From an uncultured Clostridia bacterium (GTDB taxonomy: Bacteria > Bacillota > Clostridia > Lachnospirales > Lachnospiraceae): a stretch of 64,000 nt of DNA. The translations under genes and the position numbers were made by a program. Numbering within the stretch: the first letter of the stretch is position 1; each line of letters starts with the position of its first letter. The stretch covers positions 792 through 64,791 of the forward strand of contig CAMVIN010000001.1 in assembly GCA_947167565.1 (NCBI GenBank), written 5' to 3'. A model generated the notes under the pieces. That model was not told the DNA's origin, ran no database searches, and saw nothing but the letters and a program-made list of their open reading frames with translations. Positions 12,440 to 24,415 of the stretch are shown here, piece by piece.

Positions 12440-13771
12440 ATGGAATATGTAACAGGGAAAACAGAGAAAGAGACGGTCACGGTGGAGCAGATTCTGTCAG
12501 GTGACTATGAGGGAAAAGAAGTTTGCGTTAATGGAGCCGTGCACACGATTCGGGACATGGGAGAAGTTGCATTTGTTGTTCTTCGCAGATACGATGGATT
12601 AGTTCAGACTGTTTATGAAGAGGGAACGGTAAATGTGCCATTAAAGGAATTACACGAGGAGGATGCGCTGGAGGTTCGAGGCGTAGTAGCACGGGAAGAA
12701 CGTGCGCCGCAAGGGTTTGAAATCCGGCTGCGGGAAATTAAAATTCTATCCGAGCCGGAGGAGACTATGCCGATTGCCATCAATAAATGGAAGATGAGTG
12801 CTTCTCTGGAGACGCGATTAGATTTGCGTCCGCTCTCCCTTAGAAATGTTCGGGAACGTGCGAAATTCCGTATTCAGGAAGGCCTTGTGAGAGGATTTCG
12901 TGATTTTCTTTACAGACAGGATTTTACAGAGATTCATTCTCCGAAGATTGGTGCGAGAGGAGCAGAAGGCGGTGCAAACCTGTTTCGACTGGAATATTTT
13001 CATAAGCACGCAGTGCTGGCGCAAAGTCCCCAGTTCTACAAGCAGATGATGGTAGGCGTGTTTGATCGTGTATTTGAAGTGGCACCGGTTTTTCGTGCAG
13101 AGAAACATAACACCAAGCGACATCTGAATGAGTACACTTCAATGGATTTTGAAATGGGGTACATTGACAGTTTTCAAGACATTATGGAGATGGAGACAGG
13201 ATTTCTTCAATACGCGATGGAGCTGCTGCAAAGAGAATATGAGAGAGAATTGTCGATTTTGAAGGTCGAACTTCCGAGGACAGATGAAATTCCGCAAGTA
13301 AGGTTTGACAGGGCAAAGGAACTTGTGGCAGAGAAATATCACCGGAAAATTCGCAACCCGTACGATTTGGAACCCGAAGAAGAGATGCTGATTGGAAAAT
13401 ACTTCAAAGAAGAGTGCGGTGCTGACTTTGTGTTTGTTACTCATTATCCATCCAAAAAGAGACCATTCTACGCGATGGATGATCCGGTGGATGAAAAATT
13501 CACATTAAGTTTTGATCTCTTATTTCATGGACTGGAAATTACGACAGGAGGTCAGCGCATACACGAGTATAAAGTGTTGGAGAAAAAACTTGCAGACCGC
13601 GGCATGTCTGATGAGGGAATGGAACAGTATATGTTGATTTTTAAACATGGAATGCCTCCGCATGGCGGGCTTGGAATTGGTCTGGAGCGCCTGACAATGC
13701 AGCTTCTGGGCGAAGAAAATGTAAGAGAGACGACTCTGTTTCCGAGGGATTTGAGCCGTCTGGAACCATAA
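12440..13771 (+). CDS. aspS: Aspartate--tRNA ligase, archaeal/type-2, probably non-discriminating (aspartate--tRNA(Asp/Asn) ligase)
   Basis: A 443-aa class IIb aaRS. The motif FRAEKHNTKRHLNEYTSMDFEM resembles archaeal-type AspRS (FRAEEHNTxRHLNE) rather than AsnRS. The C-terminus has GMPPHGGLGIGLERL. The gene is followed by gatCAB. Confidence 0.8.
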   Translation: MEYVTGKTEKETVTVEQILSGDYEGKEVCVNGAVHTIRDMGEVAFVVLRRYDGLVQTVYEEGTVNVPLKELHEEDALEVRGVVAREERAPQGFEIRLREIKILSEPEETMPIAINKWKMSASLETRLDLRPLSLRNVRERAKFRIQEGLVRGFRDFLYRQDFTEIHSPKIGARGAEGGANLFRLEYFHKHAVLAQSPQFYKQMMVGVFDRVFEVAPVFRAEKHNTKRHLNEYTSMDFEMGYIDSFQDIMEMETGFLQYAMELLQREYERELSILKVELPRTDEIPQVRFDRAKELVAEKYHRKIRNPYDLEPEEEMLIGKYFKEECGADFVFVTHYPSKKRPFYAMDDPVDEKFTLSFDLLFHGLEITTGGQRIHEYKVLEKKLADRGMSDEGMEQYMLIFKHGMPPHGGLGIGLERLTMQLLGEENVRETTLFPRDLSRLEP

Positions 13772-17033: not shown

Positions 17034-17381
17034 ATGGTTGAAATGAGAAGAGAAAAGCGTTGGCCGGTAGAACTTCATCTGGAGATTACCTCGCTTTTTA
17101 AACAGGACAATGTTAGAGTTGAGAATATTAATGCGCCGATTGAGGTGACGGATGTATCCAAAGCGGGTATCGGTTTTAAGACAGAGAGTCTTTTGCCGGT
17201 GGATTATTATTTTAATGCGCGCCTGGTGCTTGCGAAGAAGGATGCGTTGAACTGTGTTGTCCGCATTATTCGTCAGCAGAAGCTGGAGAATGAGCCGGGA
17301 TATTTGTATGGATGCGAGATTGTTGGTGCGGCATCTATTATGGACTATGTGATAAACGATTATGCAGCAACATTGCAGTAA
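17034..17381 (+). CDS. Single-domain PilZ protein (putative c-di-GMP receptor)
   Basis: A 115-aa ORF. RREKR fits the PilZ RxxxR motif and DVSKAGIGF fits D/NxSxxG, with the expected spacing between them. Confidence 0.65.
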   Translation: MVEMRREKRWPVELHLEITSLFKQDNVRVENINAPIEVTDVSKAGIGFKTESLLPVDYYFNARLVLAKKDALNCVVRIIRQQKLENEPGYLYGCEIVGAASIMDYVINDYAATLQ

Positions 17382-17997: not shown

Positions 17998-18022
17998 GCG
18001 CGGCTGTCAGCCGCGCTTTTTT
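17998..18022. terminator. Terminator hairpin shared by the convergent apt and FliK-like genes
   Basis: A stem GCGCGGC/GCCGCGC with a 5-nt loop is followed by T6 on the + strand. It overlaps the stop codon of the minus-strand gene. Confidence 0.7.
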
Positions 18023-19793
18023 AAGCTCTCAAGTCAAAATTATACCGGGTAATATTCCCAACCGGGGCGTCGGCACCAATAAAATCGTTCACGACATCTA
18101 CATCTTTTTCTTTCAGTGCTAATTCAGAGGAAAAGGCATATCCCTGTTCGTTAATGGCATCACTGAGTAATTCAATATTTTTCTCGAGTAGATTTTTTGT
18201 CTGGTCTGAAGATACAAAGAAATTTGCGGAAACTGCTGTATTTTCTTTGCTTATTTGGATGTCCAGTGTGCCGAGATGATCCATATCCAGATGGAGCAAA
18301 ACTTTTAATTTGTTTGGATCTTTTTTTAATGCTTCCTTCCGTGTCATGACGTAAAGGTCTCCGTGAGCATTTTGATTTTGCAGTTTTAACGGGAGCTGAA
18401 TGTACTGAAATGTTTCATTCATCATTTTCATAAAATCAAGATTGCTATTCATATCAGCCGCATTTCCGGACACCTGAGAAAATACATCTTTTCCGAGAAC
18501 ACGCTCACTGAAAGTGGAAATTTGTTCCAATTGCTGAGACATTTTTTGATAAAGTTCTTCCATAGAACCTTTTTCCTTTAATTGTTCAGGAGAAATCGTC
18601 CAGTTGTTGACGAACTGATTTTTTATAAGAGACTGAAATTCTTTATTTGTCAGTAAGTGGCTCACTTCATCGTTTTCCATTCCCGGAAAATAGGAGCGAA
18701 GCTCTGTTAGAACATCACGAATTGTAGCTGTCCCATCTAAAATTCCCTTTTTTAACTCATCGGAAATCGGATAGTCTGCGAGAAGCCGGGATAAATTCTC
18801 TCTGCCCTCTTCACTTAATGAAAACCCAATTTGCTCATGAATAAAAAAGGTTTCCTCGCTGATTACGGCTGCCTCACCGCTCAAAGAGCTGCTCACGCTT
18901 TCTGAGATATTAGAAAAGAGTTGTCGCATTCTGGATAGAGGGGAGGAAGCCTCGCCTGTACCGGTTAGCTGCTCTTCTGCTTCTGTGGCTGCATTTGCCA
19001 TATTTTCTGTCTCTTCAGCGGAGATGACTTCTCCCGTTTCATCCGTAAACTCTTCGTTGACAATATCCGGGGAGAGTGCAGTCAGTTTCTGCTCGGCTGG
19101 TGAAAGCGCACTGTCCAGAGCAAGATTTATCAGTTCGTTTGCAACATTTTTGGCAAGACGGGGAACCTGGTGCCCAATGGAATTCATCATATCATTGAGA
19201 GAATCTGTAAGAGATTCCATCTTATAGAGGAGTTGGTGTGTCTGGTTTTGGTAGTTACTGAATTGTTTCACCGTTTCCTGTGTCATAGGAAGATTCAGAG
19301 GTTTCATCGTAATGACGGAATCGACATCAGCATCTGCGTACTGGGCACATAGACGGATGTTTGCCATAATATTTTCACGGCTGATAGACTGCTGGTTTTT
19401 TAAAAGACTGCGTACAACATCAATATTGCGGTCGGACTTTGGAAGCCCGGCCTCTTCCAATGCCTGATCAACCGTGTCCTCCATATCCAGAAGATAAGCT
19501 CCGGAAATCGCTTTCATATAAATGGTATTGTTATCGAGGCTGGTAATTTGAAATGCTGCCTTTTGTCCAATAGAATACTGGTTGGCGTCTGGAAGTTTTC
19601 CGGTAAATGACGCACCATCTTCCATGGATAAAGTAATCTGATTGCCGTGTACATCGCTGACTACTCCTTTGAGTGTCTGCCCTTCCTGCAACTGGATAGC
19701 AGAACTGCCGGAGCGAAATGTGCGGGTGCGGGATACAGGTGTCTGCCCGCTGTTGTTCGTATTATTTTGAATAGAATTACTGATGATAGCCAT
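18021..19793 (-). CDS. Hypothetical protein with a FliK-like (flagellar hook-length-control type) C-terminal region; tentative
   Basis: A ~590-aa ORF starting at the internal ATG (MAIISNSIQNN...). The protein is Gln/Asn/Ser/Glu-rich and has no signal peptide or TM segment. The C-terminal block LPLKLQNQNAHGDLYVMT...LLHLDMDHLGTLDIQISKENTAVSANFFVSSDQTKNLLEKNIELLSDAINEQGY resembles the Flg_hook domain pattern. No flagellar genes are nearby. Confidence 0.4.
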   Translation of the reverse strand: MAIISNSIQNNTNNSGQTPVSRTRTFRSGSSAIQLQEGQTLKGVVSDVHGNQITLSMEDGASFTGKLPDANQYSIGQKAAFQITSLDNNTIYMKAISGAYLLDMEDTVDQALEEAGLPKSDRNIDVVRSLLKNQQSISRENIMANIRLCAQYADADVDSVITMKPLNLPMTQETVKQFSNYQNQTHQLLYKMESLTDSLNDMMNSIGHQVPRLAKNVANELINLALDSALSPAEQKLTALSPDIVNEEFTDETGEVISAEETENMANAATEAEEQLTGTGEASSPLSRMRQLFSNISESVSSSLSGEAAVISEETFFIHEQIGFSLSEEGRENLSRLLADYPISDELKKGILDGTATIRDVLTELRSYFPGMENDEVSHLLTNKEFQSLIKNQFVNNWTISPEQLKEKGSMEELYQKMSQQLEQISTFSERVLGKDVFSQVSGNAADMNSNLDFMKMMNETFQYIQLPLKLQNQNAHGDLYVMTRKEALKKDPNKLKVLLHLDMDHLGTLDIQISKENTAVSANFFVSSDQTKNLLEKNIELLSDAINEQGYAFSSELALKEKDVDVVNDFIGADAPVGNITRYNFDLRA

Positions 19794-20009
19794 ATCAGCC
19801 CTCTTTTCTGTGAAAAAATATATAAACACGTTGTAACTTCGCTCATTATATGATAAAATCAAGTCGAAGGCAAGCGCATTTCGGTTTGCTATCTATAATA
19901 TCGACAAAGGAACGATTTCATTTTAATATCACTTGAATAGTTTGAAAAAAAAGTGTATACTAAAAATAATGAGAATATAAACAGATAATAAAGTCAGGGG
20001 GAATGAACA

Positions 20010-21074
20010 TTGAAAAAGAAATTGGTTGCGGGGATTTTGGCATTTGCCATGACGGTCCCGCTGTTTGGAGGTCCGGTAGGTGTAAAGAGTGCAAAGGCAG
20101 AGACGCAGGAGACCATTGCGCTCATGAATTATGTATATAAGAACACGACGGACGCTGTTTCCTCTTCAGAATCTACATTGAATAAAACAAAATACGGTTC
20201 TGCAAAAGGTGGATATAAGTTTACAACCGGAAGTGCTACACTGTATGCGTCTACTGATGGCACGTCTAAAAGAAAATTAGAGTGGTCCAAGGCCGATGAC
20301 GGCTCAGGCAGTTCAGAAAAGTATTATACAGATTCCTTCGCGGCGGGCAATTCCGTTCGTCAACCGGTTATGACTGCGGGGAAAAAGCATCAGTGGGGGA
20401 AGAATCCGTATTTTGAAATTCAACTCTCCACAAATGGTTATAAGGACATTAACTTTTCGGCCTATATTGGTGCTTCTAAGAAAGGACCGAGAGATTACCG
20501 GATAACCTATGCGACAGGTAGCAGCAGTAAGTTTTCGTCTGTCACAGGTTCTACACTTCAATTAACTGAGAATAAGGTCATGAAGAAAATTTCAGGGATT
20601 ATTCCGGCAGATAATCAGAAAACGGTTAAGATTCGAATTGAAATCACATCATCTACTTCGGTCAGCGGTGGGAACTTGTTAGATACAACTACACTTGACA
20701 AAGATAAGAAATCTCCGAGTATGAAAGGTGAAGTTGCAATTAACCATATTTCGATTACAGGCGTTAAAACTGTGGCAGCAAGCAGTTCAACTTCCACAGC
20801 TTCTTACAAAGTTAAGAAGGTTAAATTAAATAAGAAGAAGATGGTTATAAAGAAAAACAAGAGTAAGAAGTTAAAGGTAACCGTTAAGGTGAGTCCAAAC
20901 ACGAAGGCGAATAGAAAGGCCGCAAAGAAGAAATTAAAATGGCGTAGTTCGAACAAAAAGGTTGCTACTGTGACAGGAAGCGGAAAAATCAAGGCTAAGA
21001 AAAAAGGTAAGGCGGTTATTACAGTCCGCTATTCCAAGAAGAAAAAGGCAACATGTAAAGTTATTGTAAAATAA
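20010..21074 (+). CDS. Secreted protein with an unassigned N-terminal domain and a Lys-rich C-terminal Big_2 (bacterial Ig-like) domain
   Basis: A TTG start follows AGGGGGA. The signal peptide is MKKKLVAGILAFAMTVPLFGGPVGVKSAKA. The C-terminus KVKKVKLNKKKMVIKKNKSKKLKVTVKVSP...KWRSSNKKVATVTGSGKIKAKKKGKAVITVRYSKKKKATCKVIV fits the Big_2 pattern. Confidence 0.6.
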   Translation: MKKKLVAGILAFAMTVPLFGGPVGVKSAKAETQETIALMNYVYKNTTDAVSSSESTLNKTKYGSAKGGYKFTTGSATLYASTDGTSKRKLEWSKADDGSGSSEKYYTDSFAAGNSVRQPVMTAGKKHQWGKNPYFEIQLSTNGYKDINFSAYIGASKKGPRDYRITYATGSSSKFSSVTGSTLQLTENKVMKKISGIIPADNQKTVKIRIEITSSTSVSGGNLLDTTTLDKDKKSPSMKGEVAINHISITGVKTVAASSSTSTASYKVKKVKLNKKKMVIKKNKSKKLKVTVKVSPNTKANRKAAKKKLKWRSSNKKVATVTGSGKIKAKKKGKAVITVRYSKKKKATCKVIVK

Positions 21075-21155
21075 GTGGCATAAGCCGCTTTTGAGTAAGT
21101 AATATACGGGTGGAGAACGGCAGCGGAAAAGAATGTACATAAAAAGGAGAACGAT

Positions 21156-24100
21156 ATGTTAGCGATTCAATGTAAGTTATGTGGAGGAGATATTGAGATT
21201 ACTCCGGGCGAGGCGATAGGAACCTGTGCATATTGCGGCAGTGCCAACACCTATCCAAAGACAGAAGATGAATCAAGAATTCTGGCATTTAATGATGCCA
21301 ACAATTTGAGAAGAGCGGGAGAATTTGACAAAGCACTTGCTATTTATGAAAAGATGCTTGCAGATGATCCAAATGATGCAGAATTACACTGGTGCTGTGC
21401 ACTTTCCCGGTTTGGTATTGTCTATGAGGAGGACATGAGCACATTCACCTGGGTTCCAACTTGTCATAGAACCAGTTTGGAAATTTTCACAGAAGATGTG
21501 GACTATCTGGCTGCTATTCAGAACTTTGGTGGTATTGAACAGAGACGATGCCAGCAGGATGCAGAGAAGATAGCAGATGTGGAGAGACAGATTCGTCAAG
21601 AGGCACAGGATGTCGAGCCATATGATGTATTTATCACCTGTAAGGCAGAGGATAATTCGGGCAATCGCACCGAAGAGGGAAGAGTAGCAGAAAGTCTTTA
21701 TGAGCAGTTGACAGAGAAGGGGTTGCGGGTGTTCTTTGCTCCGGAGAGTTTGAGTGGACAGAATTCGACCAAGAATCAAGCTGTGATTTATGCTGCGATG
21801 AATTCTGCAAAAGTAATGTTGCTTATCGGAACGAAGGAAGAGAATCTGGAGTCTGCATGGGTTAAGAATGATTGGTCACGTTTCCTCAGAGCAGGAAAAA
21901 GAAGAGGAGCTCAAATTATCCTTTGTACCCGCGGTATTTCTTCTTTGGCAGTGCCAAAAGCATTGTCTGCAATGCCGACCTGTGATATGGGAAAAGAGTC
22001 ATTTGCAGATGATTTGATGGAAGAGTTAAGTCAGATTTTTCCGAACAATATAAACAATGAACCGGAACCGATGCCAGAACCGGAACCAGAACCAGAACCG
22101 GAACCGGAACCGACACCTGTTTCTGCACCGGTATCAACACCGGAGGTGGAACCGGAACCTGTACCAGCACCGGCACCTACGCTTTCCAGACAGGAAAGAA
22201 AAGAGCTTGAGAAAAAAGAAAAGAAAGAGCGTGAAAAACGTGAAAAGCAAATAAGAAAAGGAAGAAGAAAAAATCAGATTATTGAAGAAGAGGTAGAGGT
22301 TCCTGAGTTTACGATGGGAGGGTTATCCTCAACTGCAGCTTCTGCAACTTCTGCGGCCGCTTCTTCCGTGGCAGATTCTGTTTCTGCTGATGTGGCAGCA
22401 ACTTCTGCAACACCGTCGGTTCAGGCAGATAGTATGCCTGAATTGATGCCGGAAATAGAGCCGCAGACAGCTTCAAGGACTGTGCAGGACTCTATGCCTG
22501 AGTTGGAACCACAGTTCGTTTCACAGACGATACCGGAACCGGTGCCGATACCGGAACCGGAACCAGAGCCGGAAGTTTCAATTGAAGAGTTATTAGATGA
22601 AGGATATCGTCATCTTTCTACAAGTATGTGGGAGATGGCGGATGAATGTTTTAAACAGGTACTTGAACGTGAGCCGAAGAACGGTCGTGCATATTTTGGT
22701 CAGTACTTGAAAGAGAATAGATATATTAGCGACGAGCATATGGCAGCTAAAATACAGCAGAATATGGATATTATATCAGGTGATCCTATTCCATTCAAAG
22801 GGGATACCGCAGAACTTGTTCAGGAACTTGTAAGGAAATATTCTCTCCCAAATTATCTGGAGCAGGATGTTATTGCTGAGAAAGTAAGATTTTCTGATGA
22901 GTATATATCTTGTGTGAAGAAGCAGAACGAGTACTATGAAGAAGTAAAGACTTCTATCGAAAACAATCAACTCCTTGCGCGTGCCTGCAGTGATACTGAG
23001 GACGGATTCGGCGATAAGCTGAATGATTTTCTGAGAAATATGATGAATGAACTTCTTCAGAGCGTGAAAAAATCTGAGCAGAAGGATGAGGCCAGCCTTG
23101 TAAAAATTCAGAAACGATACGAAGATCATATAGCGAAAGCACGAGAGGAGATTGCATCTCTTCATATTAAGGCGCTGGAACAGCAGGAGTATGATTACAT
23201 GGAAGCCTGCAGTCAGATGTCTGAGGCCGGGAATGTTGAAGAGTTTGAGAAACTTTCGGTTGTATTTGGAAAACTTGCCGGATATAAGAATGCAGATCAG
23301 TTTAAAGAGCACTGTGACAAAAAGGTAATGCATGCTGCTATGAAAGGTCAAAAAGTTAAAAAGAAAAATGGTCTGATTGTTGCAGGGTGCTCGGTTATAA
23401 TTGTTGGTGTGATTGCGGCGCTGACGCTTCCAAATTATTTGAAATATAACGGAGCGAACAGTGATTTTCAAGCTGGTAATTATGATAAAGCCATTGAGGC
23501 ATATTCCGACCTCGGCTCGTATTTGTCATCTGAGGATAAATTAAAAGAGAGTATTCAGAAGTATTCGGAGGAACTTCAGAGCAAAGGTGCTTATGATCAG
23601 GCAGAGCAACTCATTACGGGTAACTTTACGGGATTTGAACAGGAGCAGATGTTACAACAGTTGTACATTTCTGAGGCATCTACAATGGAAGCTGATACAA
23701 CAACCAATGTATCCAGACTTCGTGGCTTGTTAGAGTTATTGAAAGATGATAAAGATAAGGAAGTTGTACAGGATAAACTGGATACCTATTTCTATGAAAA
23801 AGGAAATATAGCAGCCGGAGAAGGAAACTTCAATACAGCAATCGATTGCTATAAGATGGTAGAAAAAATCCATAAAGATGAGGCACAGAAGATGTTGGAT
23901 GTGCTCGAGGGGACAATGTCCAATATTCTTTATGGTTATATCAAAGGTGTTACATGGAAACTTGACAGTTGTACCTACGGTGGAAAGTCTCGCAATGAAG
24001 ACGTGACCAAGTTTGCCGGTGTTCATGTACGGATTGAAAAAGAAAAAGCAGTTTTCTATGTAACATTTGAGGATAAAGATGTAGATTTGAAGAATTATAA

Positions 24101-24224
24101 TTCAATTTCTAATATTAATGTAAAAGTTGGTGGTTCTCACTATACTTTACGCTTTGGTGGAAATACCTTGACCATTACCGGAAAGACCGGTGGAAAGAAA
24201 GTAGTTTCCAAATTGAGTTACTAA
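21156..24224 (+). CDS. Single-pass membrane protein: N-terminal zinc ribbon, TPR-like helices, TIR-like domain, long low-complexity linker, TM helix, extracytoplasmic C-terminal domain
   Basis: A zinc ribbon CKLCGG...CAYCGS spans aa 6-28. A TIR-like block spans aa ~156-290 (YDVFITCKAEDNSG...GLRVFFAPESL...AKVMLLIGT...SAWVKNDWSRFL). PE-dipeptide, Lys/Glu and Ser/Ala tracts span aa ~300-480. The single hydrophobic span GLIVAGCSVIIVGVIAALTLP (aa 739-759, nt 23370-23432) is preceded by KGQKVKKKN. TPR-like GNYDKAIEAYSDLG lies after the TM segment. Confidence 0.6.
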   Translation: MLAIQCKLCGGDIEITPGEAIGTCAYCGSANTYPKTEDESRILAFNDANNLRRAGEFDKALAIYEKMLADDPNDAELHWCCALSRFGIVYEEDMSTFTWVPTCHRTSLEIFTEDVDYLAAIQNFGGIEQRRCQQDAEKIADVERQIRQEAQDVEPYDVFITCKAEDNSGNRTEEGRVAESLYEQLTEKGLRVFFAPESLSGQNSTKNQAVIYAAMNSAKVMLLIGTKEENLESAWVKNDWSRFLRAGKRRGAQIILCTRGISSLAVPKALSAMPTCDMGKESFADDLMEELSQIFPNNINNEPEPMPEPEPEPEPEPEPTPVSAPVSTPEVEPEPVPAPAPTLSRQERKELEKKEKKEREKREKQIRKGRRKNQIIEEEVEVPEFTMGGLSSTAASATSAAASSVADSVSADVAATSATPSVQADSMPELMPEIEPQTASRTVQDSMPELEPQFVSQTIPEPVPIPEPEPEPEVSIEELLDEGYRHLSTSMWEMADECFKQVLEREPKNGRAYFGQYLKENRYISDEHMAAKIQQNMDIISGDPIPFKGDTAELVQELVRKYSLPNYLEQDVIAEKVRFSDEYISCVKKQNEYYEEVKTSIENNQLLARACSDTEDGFGDKLNDFLRNMMNELLQSVKKSEQKDEASLVKIQKRYEDHIAKAREEIASLHIKALEQQEYDYMEACSQMSEAGNVEEFEKLSVVFGKLAGYKNADQFKEHCDKKVMHAAMKGQKVKKKNGLIVAGCSVIIVGVIAALTLPNYLKYNGANSDFQAGNYDKAIEAYSDLGSYLSSEDKLKESIQKYSEELQSKGAYDQAEQLITGNFTGFEQEQMLQQLYISEASTMEADTTTNVSRLRGLLELLKDDKDKEVVQDKLDTYFYEKGNIAAGEGNFNTAIDCYKMVEKIHKDEAQKMLDVLEGTMSNILYGYIKGVTWKLDSCTYGGKSRNEDVTKFAGVHVRIEKEKAVFYVTFEDKDVDLKNYNSISNINVKVGGSHYTLRFGGNTLTITGKTGGKKVVSKLSY
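22059..22112 (+). repeat. GAACC(R) hexanucleotide tandem tract encoding a (Pro-Glu)n linker inside the TIR gene
   Basis: About nine consecutive GAA-CCN codon pairs (EPEPMPEPEPEPEPEPEP). A shorter second tract lies near 22536-22580. Confidence 0.8.
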
Positions 24225-24281: not shown

Positions 24282-24310
24282 GAGGGGTTGGTAGATCGGC
24301 CCCTCTTTTT
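24282..24310 (+). terminator. Intrinsic terminator after the TIR gene
   Basis: A stem GAGGGG/CCCCTC is followed by T5. It is preceded by a second, looser hairpin AGTTCCA...TGGAACT with T7 (24232-24280). Confidence 0.6.
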
Positions 24311-24344: not shown

Positions 24345-24373
24345 TTGACATTATGGTAGCAAGGTGGTATCTT
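24345..24373 (+). promoter_or_regulatory. Putative sigma-A promoter of the hrcA operon
   Basis: TTGACA (24345-24350), a 17-nt spacer, then TATCTT (24368-24373), immediately upstream of CIRCE. Confidence 0.55.
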
Positions 24374-24388
24374 AATTGTAGTCAGTGA

Positions 24389-24415
24389 TTAGCACTCGGC
24401 TCCAATGAGTGCTAA
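24389..24415 (+). promoter_or_regulatory. CIRCE operator (HrcA binding site)
   Basis: A perfect match to the consensus TTAGCACTC-N9-GAGTGCTAA, located between the promoter and hrcA. Confidence 0.95.

Follow-up and report, generated by a model that had tools for sequence, protein, structure and literature searches.

The stretch of DNA analysed here, called the window throughout, comprises 64,000 nucleotides (64 kb) from an uncultured Clostridia bacterium of the Lachnospiraceae (GenBank assembly GCA_947167565.1, contig CAMVIN010000001.1, positions 792 to 64,791). The gene under study is an open reading frame (ORF) at 21156..24224, which encodes a membrane-anchored protein with a TIR domain; this gene and all its features described below are on the forward strand. 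Its neighbours in the window are gatAB, a phosphoribosyltransferase (PRTase) gene, a FliK-like gene, the gene of a Big_2 protein and hrcA-grpE-dnaK-dnaJ. The ORF begins with ATG, specifies a type II single-pass membrane protein of 1022 residues, and has a GC content of 42% against 44% for the window. A ribosome-binding site, AAGGAG (21144..21149), was read directly in the sequence 6 nt before the start codon, and an intrinsic terminator with a 10-bp stem and a T run (24282..24305) lies between the gene and the hrcA operon. The ORF is not a chance product, because it is represented by six orthologues and at least 130 family members in other genomes. Comparison with these relatives indicates that, in the clade of the window gene, features typical of an active enzyme are disappearing from the TIR domain, whereas the zinc-ribbon/TPR module and the extracellular domain (ectodomain) remain conserved.

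Domain layout of the TIR protein

A sequence-only reading of the window had described the 1022-residue ORF as a chain of a zinc ribbon, TPR-like helices, a TIR-like block, a low-complexity region, one hydrophobic span and a helical and beta-rich C-terminal part, and each of these features was recovered where it had been placed. The Cys4 zinc ribbon occupies residues 1-36 (21156..21263), and its cysteines C6, C9, C24 and C27 were invariant or at least 90% conserved among 115 aligned homologues, which confirms the CxxC...CxxC ribbon read earlier at residues 6-28 and suggests that the four residues serve as zinc ligands. Residues 37-150 (21264..21605) contain TPR-like helices, a beta hairpin and a long helix, delineated by TPR_2, the invariant columns and the DSSP assignment of a model; Pfam TPR_2 matched residues 48-74 with 39.8 bits (cut-off 27), in agreement with the TPR-like helices expected after the ribbon. 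A second Cys/His cluster formed by H78, C80, C81, C103 and H104 (21387-21467, residues 78-104) is located between the TPR helices and the beta hairpin, is invariant or nearly so across the family, and may constitute a second metal site. The invariant residues of the head in the alignment of 115 sequences include C9, C27, H78, W79, C80, C81, C103, W235, N238 and R242, and the window protein retains the Cys4 ribbon, the H78/C80/C81/C103 cluster, W235, N238 and R242.

Residues 151-295 (21606..22040) form a TIR-fold domain that has diverged from the family consensus, as judged from TIR_2, Foldseek and a profile of the family. The Pfam TIR_2 model (PF13676) matched residues 174-285 with 27.3 bits, slightly below the cut-off of 28.0 (E 5.4e-6), and a precomputed PF13676 match was present on nearly all listed homologues. 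The AlphaFold2 model of residues 1-300, computed from the alignment of 115 sequences, had a mean pLDDT of 90.9 and a pTM of 0.84, a confidence that for the window TIR is partly borrowed because the alignment is dominated by main-family sequences with better-conserved TIR domains. In this model the head is one compact unit consisting of the ribbon, three TPR-like helices, the beta hairpin, the long helix and an alpha/beta domain. Its best 28 Foldseek matches in the PDB were all TIR domains, including those of SARM1, L7, SPARTA TIR-APAZ, SNC1 and MyD88, with a probability of 1.00, TM-scores up to 0.67 on isolated TIR targets, and modest E-values (from 1.6e-3). The fold of the block at residues ~156-290 that had been called TIR-like is thus confirmed by the model and its matches, with TIR_2 itself remaining slightly under its threshold.

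The catalytic position was located by alignment. A profile of the family TIR region matched the TIR of TLR15 (the best PDB sequence match, E 2.3e-4) and those of the plant proteins RPV1 and RUN1, and the family motif W-V-K-N-E aligned with W-C-L-D-E of RUN1, so that the family Glu column corresponds to E100 of RUN1. The same column reads Ala in PDB entry 7s2z, which we take to be the catalytic E100A mutant of RUN1. The window protein carries Asp239 (GAT, 21870..21872) at this position, in place of the Glu that enzymatic TIR domains have in the alphaC helix four residues past the conserved Trp, and the alignment with RUN1 bears out the sequence-only reading, which had noticed this Asp by eye. 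Glu occupies the column in 113 of the 115 aligned proteins and in 131 of 135 genome-locus members; Asp was found only in the window protein, in P0001/L007 and in the L087 orthologue.

A low-complexity linker with PE runs, Lys/Glu-rich and Ser/Ala-rich stretches (residues 296-475, 22041..22580) follows the TIR domain, as had been described, and is partly built from short DNA repeats, the PE runs being encoded by GAACCG (nine copies) and CCGGAACCGGAG (3.5 copies). It is longer in the window protein than in the orthologues. The cytoplasmic helical stalk (residues 476-738, 22581..23369), conserved family-wide in the alignment consensus, has its end marked by LAGYKNA, a juxtamembrane motif, and by a cluster of Lys. 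The single transmembrane helix, assigned by Kyte-Doolittle hydropathy and the positive-inside rule, spans residues 739-759 (23370..23432). It is the sole hydrophobic span, with a 19-residue Kyte-Doolittle maximum of 2.73 at residue 740, and is flanked by five Lys on the N side against one Lys or Arg on the C side; the earlier reading had likewise given one span at these residues with a Lys cluster on its N side. One clear transmembrane helix was present in 85 of 135 non-redundant family members, and the location of the head inside and the tail outside is supported, because the N side of the helix was richer in Lys and Arg in 82 of these 85 proteins. No N-terminal signal sequence was found in the window protein, which also favours the proposal that zinc ribbon and TIR face the cytoplasm and the C-terminal domain the outside. 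The window protein genuinely has a TIR fold, a zinc ribbon and a single transmembrane helix.

The ectodomain consists of a TPR-like helical solenoid (residues 760-930, 23433..23945), which opens with the family-wide repeat GxY..A...F..LGxY, and a nine-stranded beta domain (residues 931-1022, 23946..24221), which is restricted to the clade and weakly lipocalin-like. Pfam TPR_1 matched residues 879-904 with 33.6 bits (cut-off 27.8). A model of residues 760-1022 computed from five sequences reached a pLDDT of 92.3 and showed ten helices followed by nine strands (DSSP), matching the TPR-like helices and beta-rich end that had been read in the C-terminal ~260 residues. In Foldseek searches the helices resembled TPR and BamD-type solenoids, the beta domain gave weak matches to the lipocalins Can f 1 and C8gamma (E ~0.017 over ~100 columns), and the comparison of the ectodomain with viral structures returned generic TPR matches and nothing specific. 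When 1.84 billion representatives were searched exhaustively with phmmer, the full ectodomain was covered by two clusters only; all other matches were confined to the juxtamembrane repeat, the sole part with matches outside the clade. By BLASTP the ectodomain was 50% identical to that of P0001. A similar short motif occurs on both sides of the membrane, F..L.GYKNA before the transmembrane helix (23262-23300) and Y.DLGSYLSS after it (23499-23540), and the main family repeats the motif several times outside, as GDY..A...F..LGDYKD.

The main family and the clade of the window gene

The first ~300 residues of the window protein were 45-59% identical to each of the 120 best database matches, and the same range was found between its head (residues 1-300) and the 114 homologues of the alignment. 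A scan of one genome per GTDB species yielded 78 loci of the family, all with Clostridia-type record titles (Oscillospiraceae, Ruminococcaceae, Lachnospiraceae, Christensenellales, Acutalibacteraceae), mostly in metagenome-assembled genomes from gut and rumen and also in the cultured Neglectibacter timonensis SN17 (locus L071). The earlier suggestion that similar zinc-ribbon-TIR proteins occur in gut Firmicutes is therefore borne out; in the sources the proteins are called 'hypothetical' or 'TPR repeat protein', names that are uninformative. No description of the zinc-ribbon/TPR/TIR/transmembrane architecture was found in the open-access literature, and the main text of a paper on gut TIR NADases (PMC9092222) does not contain the words 'transmembrane' or 'tetratricopeptide'. 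Neither tblastn searches of phage and plasmid collections nor a scan of IMG/VR turned up any relative of the head, so a phage- or plasmid-borne origin is not supported.

Family members are composed of the head, a variable linker, the conserved helical stalk, the transmembrane helix, the repeat GDY..A...F..LG.Y.D and an ectodomain that differs between members. Most of them belong to what we call the main family, a very large group in which RCC1 propellers or DUF6273 follow the repeat, or no ectodomain is present. DUF6273 forms many of these ectodomains (for example in L004, 853-3033, and in L005); this domain has been tied to receptor-binding proteins of phages in which diversity-generating retroelements cause hypermutation (PMC10743442). 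Main-family examples (P0065, P0008, P0120 and the protein of N. timonensis SN17) were 45-51% identical to the window protein over the first ~300 residues and share with it the head residues, the stalk, the juxtamembrane repeat and the topology. Unlike the clade of the window gene, the main family has RCC1/DUF6273 ectodomains, tandem arrays, neighbouring genes of two protein clusters, C1 and C2, and a retained catalytic Glu.

The neighbourhoods were counted with our own ORF calling in the fetched loci and BLAST clustering. The C1 protein is ~600 residues long and devoid of transmembrane segments. Several zinc ribbons are joined in it to an SPFH domain (Pfam Band_7_1, 1.6e-37) and to a stretch rich in Gly, and three zinc ribbons lie at the C-terminus. 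Its gene was present in 50 of 77 non-redundant main-family loci (15 of the 21 loci that extend for 5 kb or more on either side), at most 3 kb from a family gene in 48 of the 50 and on the same strand in 49. The C2 protein (~235 residues, 4-6 hydrophobic segments, a charged helical tail and no Pfam match) was encoded in 44 of the 77 loci, usually after C1. The sequence-only reading had seen no recognisable partner; this holds for the window but not for the main family, given the zinc-ribbon/SPFH gene of those 50 loci. Relevant to the main family only, C1 resembles the SPFH protein YdjI of Bacillus subtilis, which needs the membrane proteins YdjG and YdjH (PMC8581546). The likeness is that C1 is a soluble SPFH protein bearing a low-complexity region rich in Gly and zinc fingers at its C-terminus, and that a multi-transmembrane gene follows it; this is a resemblance only, and unlike the YdjI system, no PspA gene was seen beside C1/C2, and C1 has N-terminal zinc ribbons. 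None of these partner genes is present in the window.

Tandem arrangement of family genes is frequent, a locus holding as many as six of them. L005 (1416-21246), L080, L047 and L025 contain arrays of four to six paralogues that differ in their ectodomains and are interleaved with zinc-ribbon/SPFH, multi-transmembrane, LRR_5 and PhdYeFM-like antitoxin genes. Integrase and resolvase genes are also recurrent neighbours of the main family, as are the genes of stand-alone RCC1 proteins, of an RHH protein (10 loci) and of a DUF2971 protein (weak Pfam match). In seven loci (L012 at 12747-13679, L025, L027, L042, L056, L076 and L080) a SIR2_2/AbiH-like protein of 310 residues is encoded directly beside the TIR genes, a pairing that recalls Thoeris, with no SLOG domain seen in this neighbour. 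Long reverse-strand ORFs of up to 1537 residues that lack a Pfam match (cluster C4) were also observed beside family genes (L011, L052, L084 and others); the longest-ORF rule may have generated them as antisense artefacts from RCC1 genes rich in repeats. To judge from these comparisons, main-family proteins look like membrane receptors in which the TIR is under strong constraint and competent as an enzyme, apparently one that processes NAD+ and depends on oligomerisation. The family's variable ectodomains, tandem paralogues and frequent mobile-element neighbours would fit a conflict or defence role.

The window gene belongs to a small clade outside the main family. Six syntenic orthologues were found, in L001, L003, L085, L086, L087 and the window, the full-length relatives being P0001-P0004 and a product of 921 residues in L087/L088; the orthologues in the five other genomes are intact and 898-921 residues long. 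The gene order in the six loci is (gatAB), PRTase, the FliK-like gene on the other strand, sometimes LrgAB, Big_2, the TIR gene, and hrcA-grpE-dnaK. No second copy of the TIR gene was found within the window, hidden Markov models of the C1, C2, SIR2_2-like and DUF2971-like clusters had no match there (hmmsearch, E<=10), and C1/C2 partner genes were not seen in the five orthologous loci either. Because of the shared synteny, the matching GC content, the lack of paralogues and partner genes in the window and the private ectodomain, the window gene is a vertically inherited, single-copy, core-genome copy.

Within this clade the regions of the protein have diverged unequally. The mean pairwise identity among five orthologues was 84% for the zinc ribbon and 77% for residues 37-150, and it was 47% for the TIR, 50% for the stalk, 51% for the ectodomain helices and 59% for the ectodomain beta domain. 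Between the window protein and its orthologues the N-terminal module was 75-89% and the ectodomain 44-61% identical, with 47% over residues 476-1021 for the L087 orthologue. Among the main-family pairs that are 70-80% identical in residues 1-150 (n=1343, from 130 members), the TIR identity was 77+-5% with a minimum of 61%, whereas clade pairs at the same N-module identity had a TIR identity of just 37-43%, so that the clade TIR diverges ~2x faster than expected from the N-terminal module. Of 55 TIR positions at least 95% conserved in the 130 main-family members, the window protein keeps 32 and the other clade members 23-32, while 29 of 37 such positions are kept in the N-module of the window protein (27-29 across the clade). 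Among the positions lost in the window TIR are Y162C and E164A, where the first strand ends; R196P, I197E and E200S, in the loop that follows the second strand (strand B); the Y207-P209-Y210 patch; and E239D. The catalytic Glu is replaced by Asp in three of the six clade members. The L087 orthologue has, besides the Asp at the catalytic column, the change W235K and a deletion of 7 residues, and no Pfam TIR, or any Pfam family, is on record for it.

Proposed function of the window protein

The enzymatic TIR domains of RUN1/RPV1, SARM1, SPARTA TIR-APAZ and the ThsB/AbTir-type NADases have the fold in common with the window protein, and the main family shares their W-x-x-x-E helix motif as well. 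Unlike them, the window protein has Asp239, is devoid of 23 of the 55 family-conserved TIR residues, and has its TIR fused to a zinc-ribbon/TPR module and tethered to the membrane via a long stalk. Like Toll-like receptors, the window protein has a single transmembrane helix, with a ligand-binding-type domain predicted outside and the TIR predicted inside. Unlike these receptors, the window protein has the reversed chain order (type II, N-terminus inside), an ectodomain of TPR and beta structure instead of leucine-rich repeats, an extra zinc-ribbon/TPR head and a cytoplasmic helical stalk of ~260 residues. The opposite polarity to Toll-like receptors that had been proposed thus applies to the order of the chain (type II against type I) and not to function, the sensor-out/TIR-in layout being the same; the resemblance is one of layout and implies no common descent of the whole architecture. 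By analogy, the TIR of TirC from Dictyostelium is also held at the membrane by a single helix. TirC is a transmembrane-tethered TIR NADase acquired from bacteria, and removal of its tether unleashed toxicity, which suggests that tethering can restrain self-assembly of the TIR (PMC13142454, preprint). Unlike the window protein, TirC has only an N-terminal helix, no ectodomain and an active catalytic Glu.

The reading that we favour, to which we give a probability of roughly 0.45, is that the window gene encodes a domesticated receptor-like membrane protein with an output produced by contacts of its head, in which the TIR is an association or adaptor module or a weak enzyme. The ectodomain would bind something at the cell surface, the candidates being a ligand that is small or hydrophobic and the Big_2 protein, which is co-conserved, and the binding would alter the association of stalks and heads. 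The output would then pass mainly through protein contacts of the zinc-ribbon/TPR/TIR head, with the TIR serving for self-association or as an adaptor, having at most weak NADase activity, and not generating a signal in the Thoeris manner. Support is good for the architecture, the topology and the family relationships; that the protein works like a receptor and that its TIR is an adaptor is inferred. The sequence-only reading had suggested that the enzymology may differ on account of the Asp; the Asp itself is confirmed, but it is not an isolated catalytic quirk, because it stands within a general erosion of the clade TIR, which points to attenuated or lost catalysis rather than new chemistry.

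Several observations, some of which weigh against the favoured reading, speak for a transmembrane TIR that is still an active enzyme, in which an outside ligand would cluster the TIR domains, Asp239 would act as the catalytic carboxylate and the output of a TLR-like logic would be NAD+ cleavage or a cyclic ADPR-type signal. The TIR fold is retained, Asp239 keeps a carboxylate and W235, N238 and R242 are present, so that residual or altered catalysis is conceivable; Glu is retained in three of the six clade members; and in the main family the W-x-x-x-E motif is canonical, its Glu falls on RUN1 E100, and the TIR is conserved to an extreme degree. The fast divergence of the clade TIR could reflect diversifying selection rather than relaxation. 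The favoured reading is further weakened by the partly borrowed confidence of the AlphaFold2 model for the window TIR, by a topology drawn from hydropathy and the positive-inside rule, and by the extent of the partner search in the window genome, which covered 64 kb, so that partner genes could lie elsewhere. We nevertheless regard an active enzyme as possible rather than probable, considering that 23 of 55 near-invariant TIR positions are changed, R196P, I197E, E200S, Y162C and E164A among them, that the TIR divergence is far beyond the main-family range, that the closest-context orthologue has lost the invariant Trp as well, and that no receiver or effector gene is present in the window. A wider proposal, which we hold to be somewhat doubtful, is that the main family couples extracellular sensing to a cytoplasmic TIR enzyme by a TLR-like logic, with swappable RCC1/DUF6273 ectodomains and SPFH and multi-transmembrane partners, and that the window gene is a domesticated pseudo-enzyme or adaptor copy of it. 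A shift from enzyme to adaptor is seen in animal TIRs.

Bacterial TIR proteins are commonly components of defence systems, and the main-family loci, which often hold integrases, resolvases, RHH and antitoxin-like genes, a SIR2_2/AbiH-like gene in seven cases and arrays of up to six, would suit an anti-phage or abortive-infection gene comparable to single-gene TIR defence or to ThsB of Thoeris. For the window gene such a role is improbable: its locus is a conserved housekeeping one in six genomes, and the gene is present in the window as a single copy with a GC content like that of its surroundings, and has no relatives in the phage, plasmid and IMG/VR collections. As the earlier reading had observed, no SIR2, SLOG or nuclease gene was found near it among the window genes. 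Its best matches to Thoeris models, PADLOC ThsB1 (E 0.0038, 14.4 bits) and NCBIfam ThcB4 (23.3 bits against a cut-off of 220), were far below threshold, and a ThsA-type partner or an adjacent effector (SIR2/SLOG or Macro/TM) is missing; a Thoeris-type gene was therefore rejected, and the Thoeris framing given to it before is not supported. PADLOC and NCBIfam identified no known defence system among the target and the main-family partner proteins, the sole match being a weak one to PDC-S66 for P0065. The erosion of the TIR and the expanded low-complexity linker might also be taken as signs that the whole gene is a functionless remnant on its way to a pseudogene. We consider this very improbable in view of the intact 1022-residue frame with a good ribosome-binding site and its own terminator, the intact orthologues in five other genomes, and the identities to them of the N-module and the ectodomain. 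A defence role and decay of the whole gene suit the evidence less well than an adaptor or an active enzyme.

The bacterial TIR proteins studied so far mostly sense intracellular events. In the family described here, which is abundant in gut and rumen Clostridia, the TIR is placed on the cytoplasmic end of a single-pass protein whose outer domain has been swapped among paralogues. If the ectodomain does control the TIR, these proteins would couple prokaryotic surface sensing to a TIR output, and the unexplained SPFH partner would also enter the picture. The clade of the window gene represents a lineage in which a copy became fixed in the core genome, the partners were lost and the catalytic features decayed, with head and ectodomain retained, an experiment of nature in the possible conversion of a TIR enzyme into a scaffold.

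Genes adjoining the TIR gene

The Big_2 gene (20010..21074, forward strand) encodes a secreted protein of 354 residues with a signal-peptide-like N-terminus and a C-terminal Big_2 domain (Pfam Big_2, 5.6e-9), and the protein is 100% identical to P0194 in the protein collection (NCBI/ENA). It lies directly 5' of the TIR gene in all six orthologous loci, while a distant homologue (L089) does not adjoin a TIR gene; the adjacency is compatible with an obligatory partnership and with plain synteny alike. The FliK-like gene, about whose conservation the sequence-only reading had asked together with that of the Big_2 gene, is likewise syntenic in six of six loci. It encodes a hook-length-control protein of 613 residues (18021-19862, reverse strand; Flg_hook, 2.9e-13) and stands alone, far from flagellar genes.

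Just past the terminator of the TIR gene, the hrcA operon is preceded by a promoter-like site TTGACA...TATCTT within 24345-24415 and by a perfect CIRCE inverted repeat (TTAGCACTC-N9-GAGTGCTAA) at 24389-24415. A tie of the TIR gene to this heat-shock operon was considered and rejected, because the strong terminator and the separate CIRCE-controlled promoter stand between the two units. On the other side of the locus, an ORF of 115 residues without a Pfam match (17034-17381, forward strand) directly follows gatB, and ORFs of 119-129 residues are found at the equivalent place in L001 and L087.

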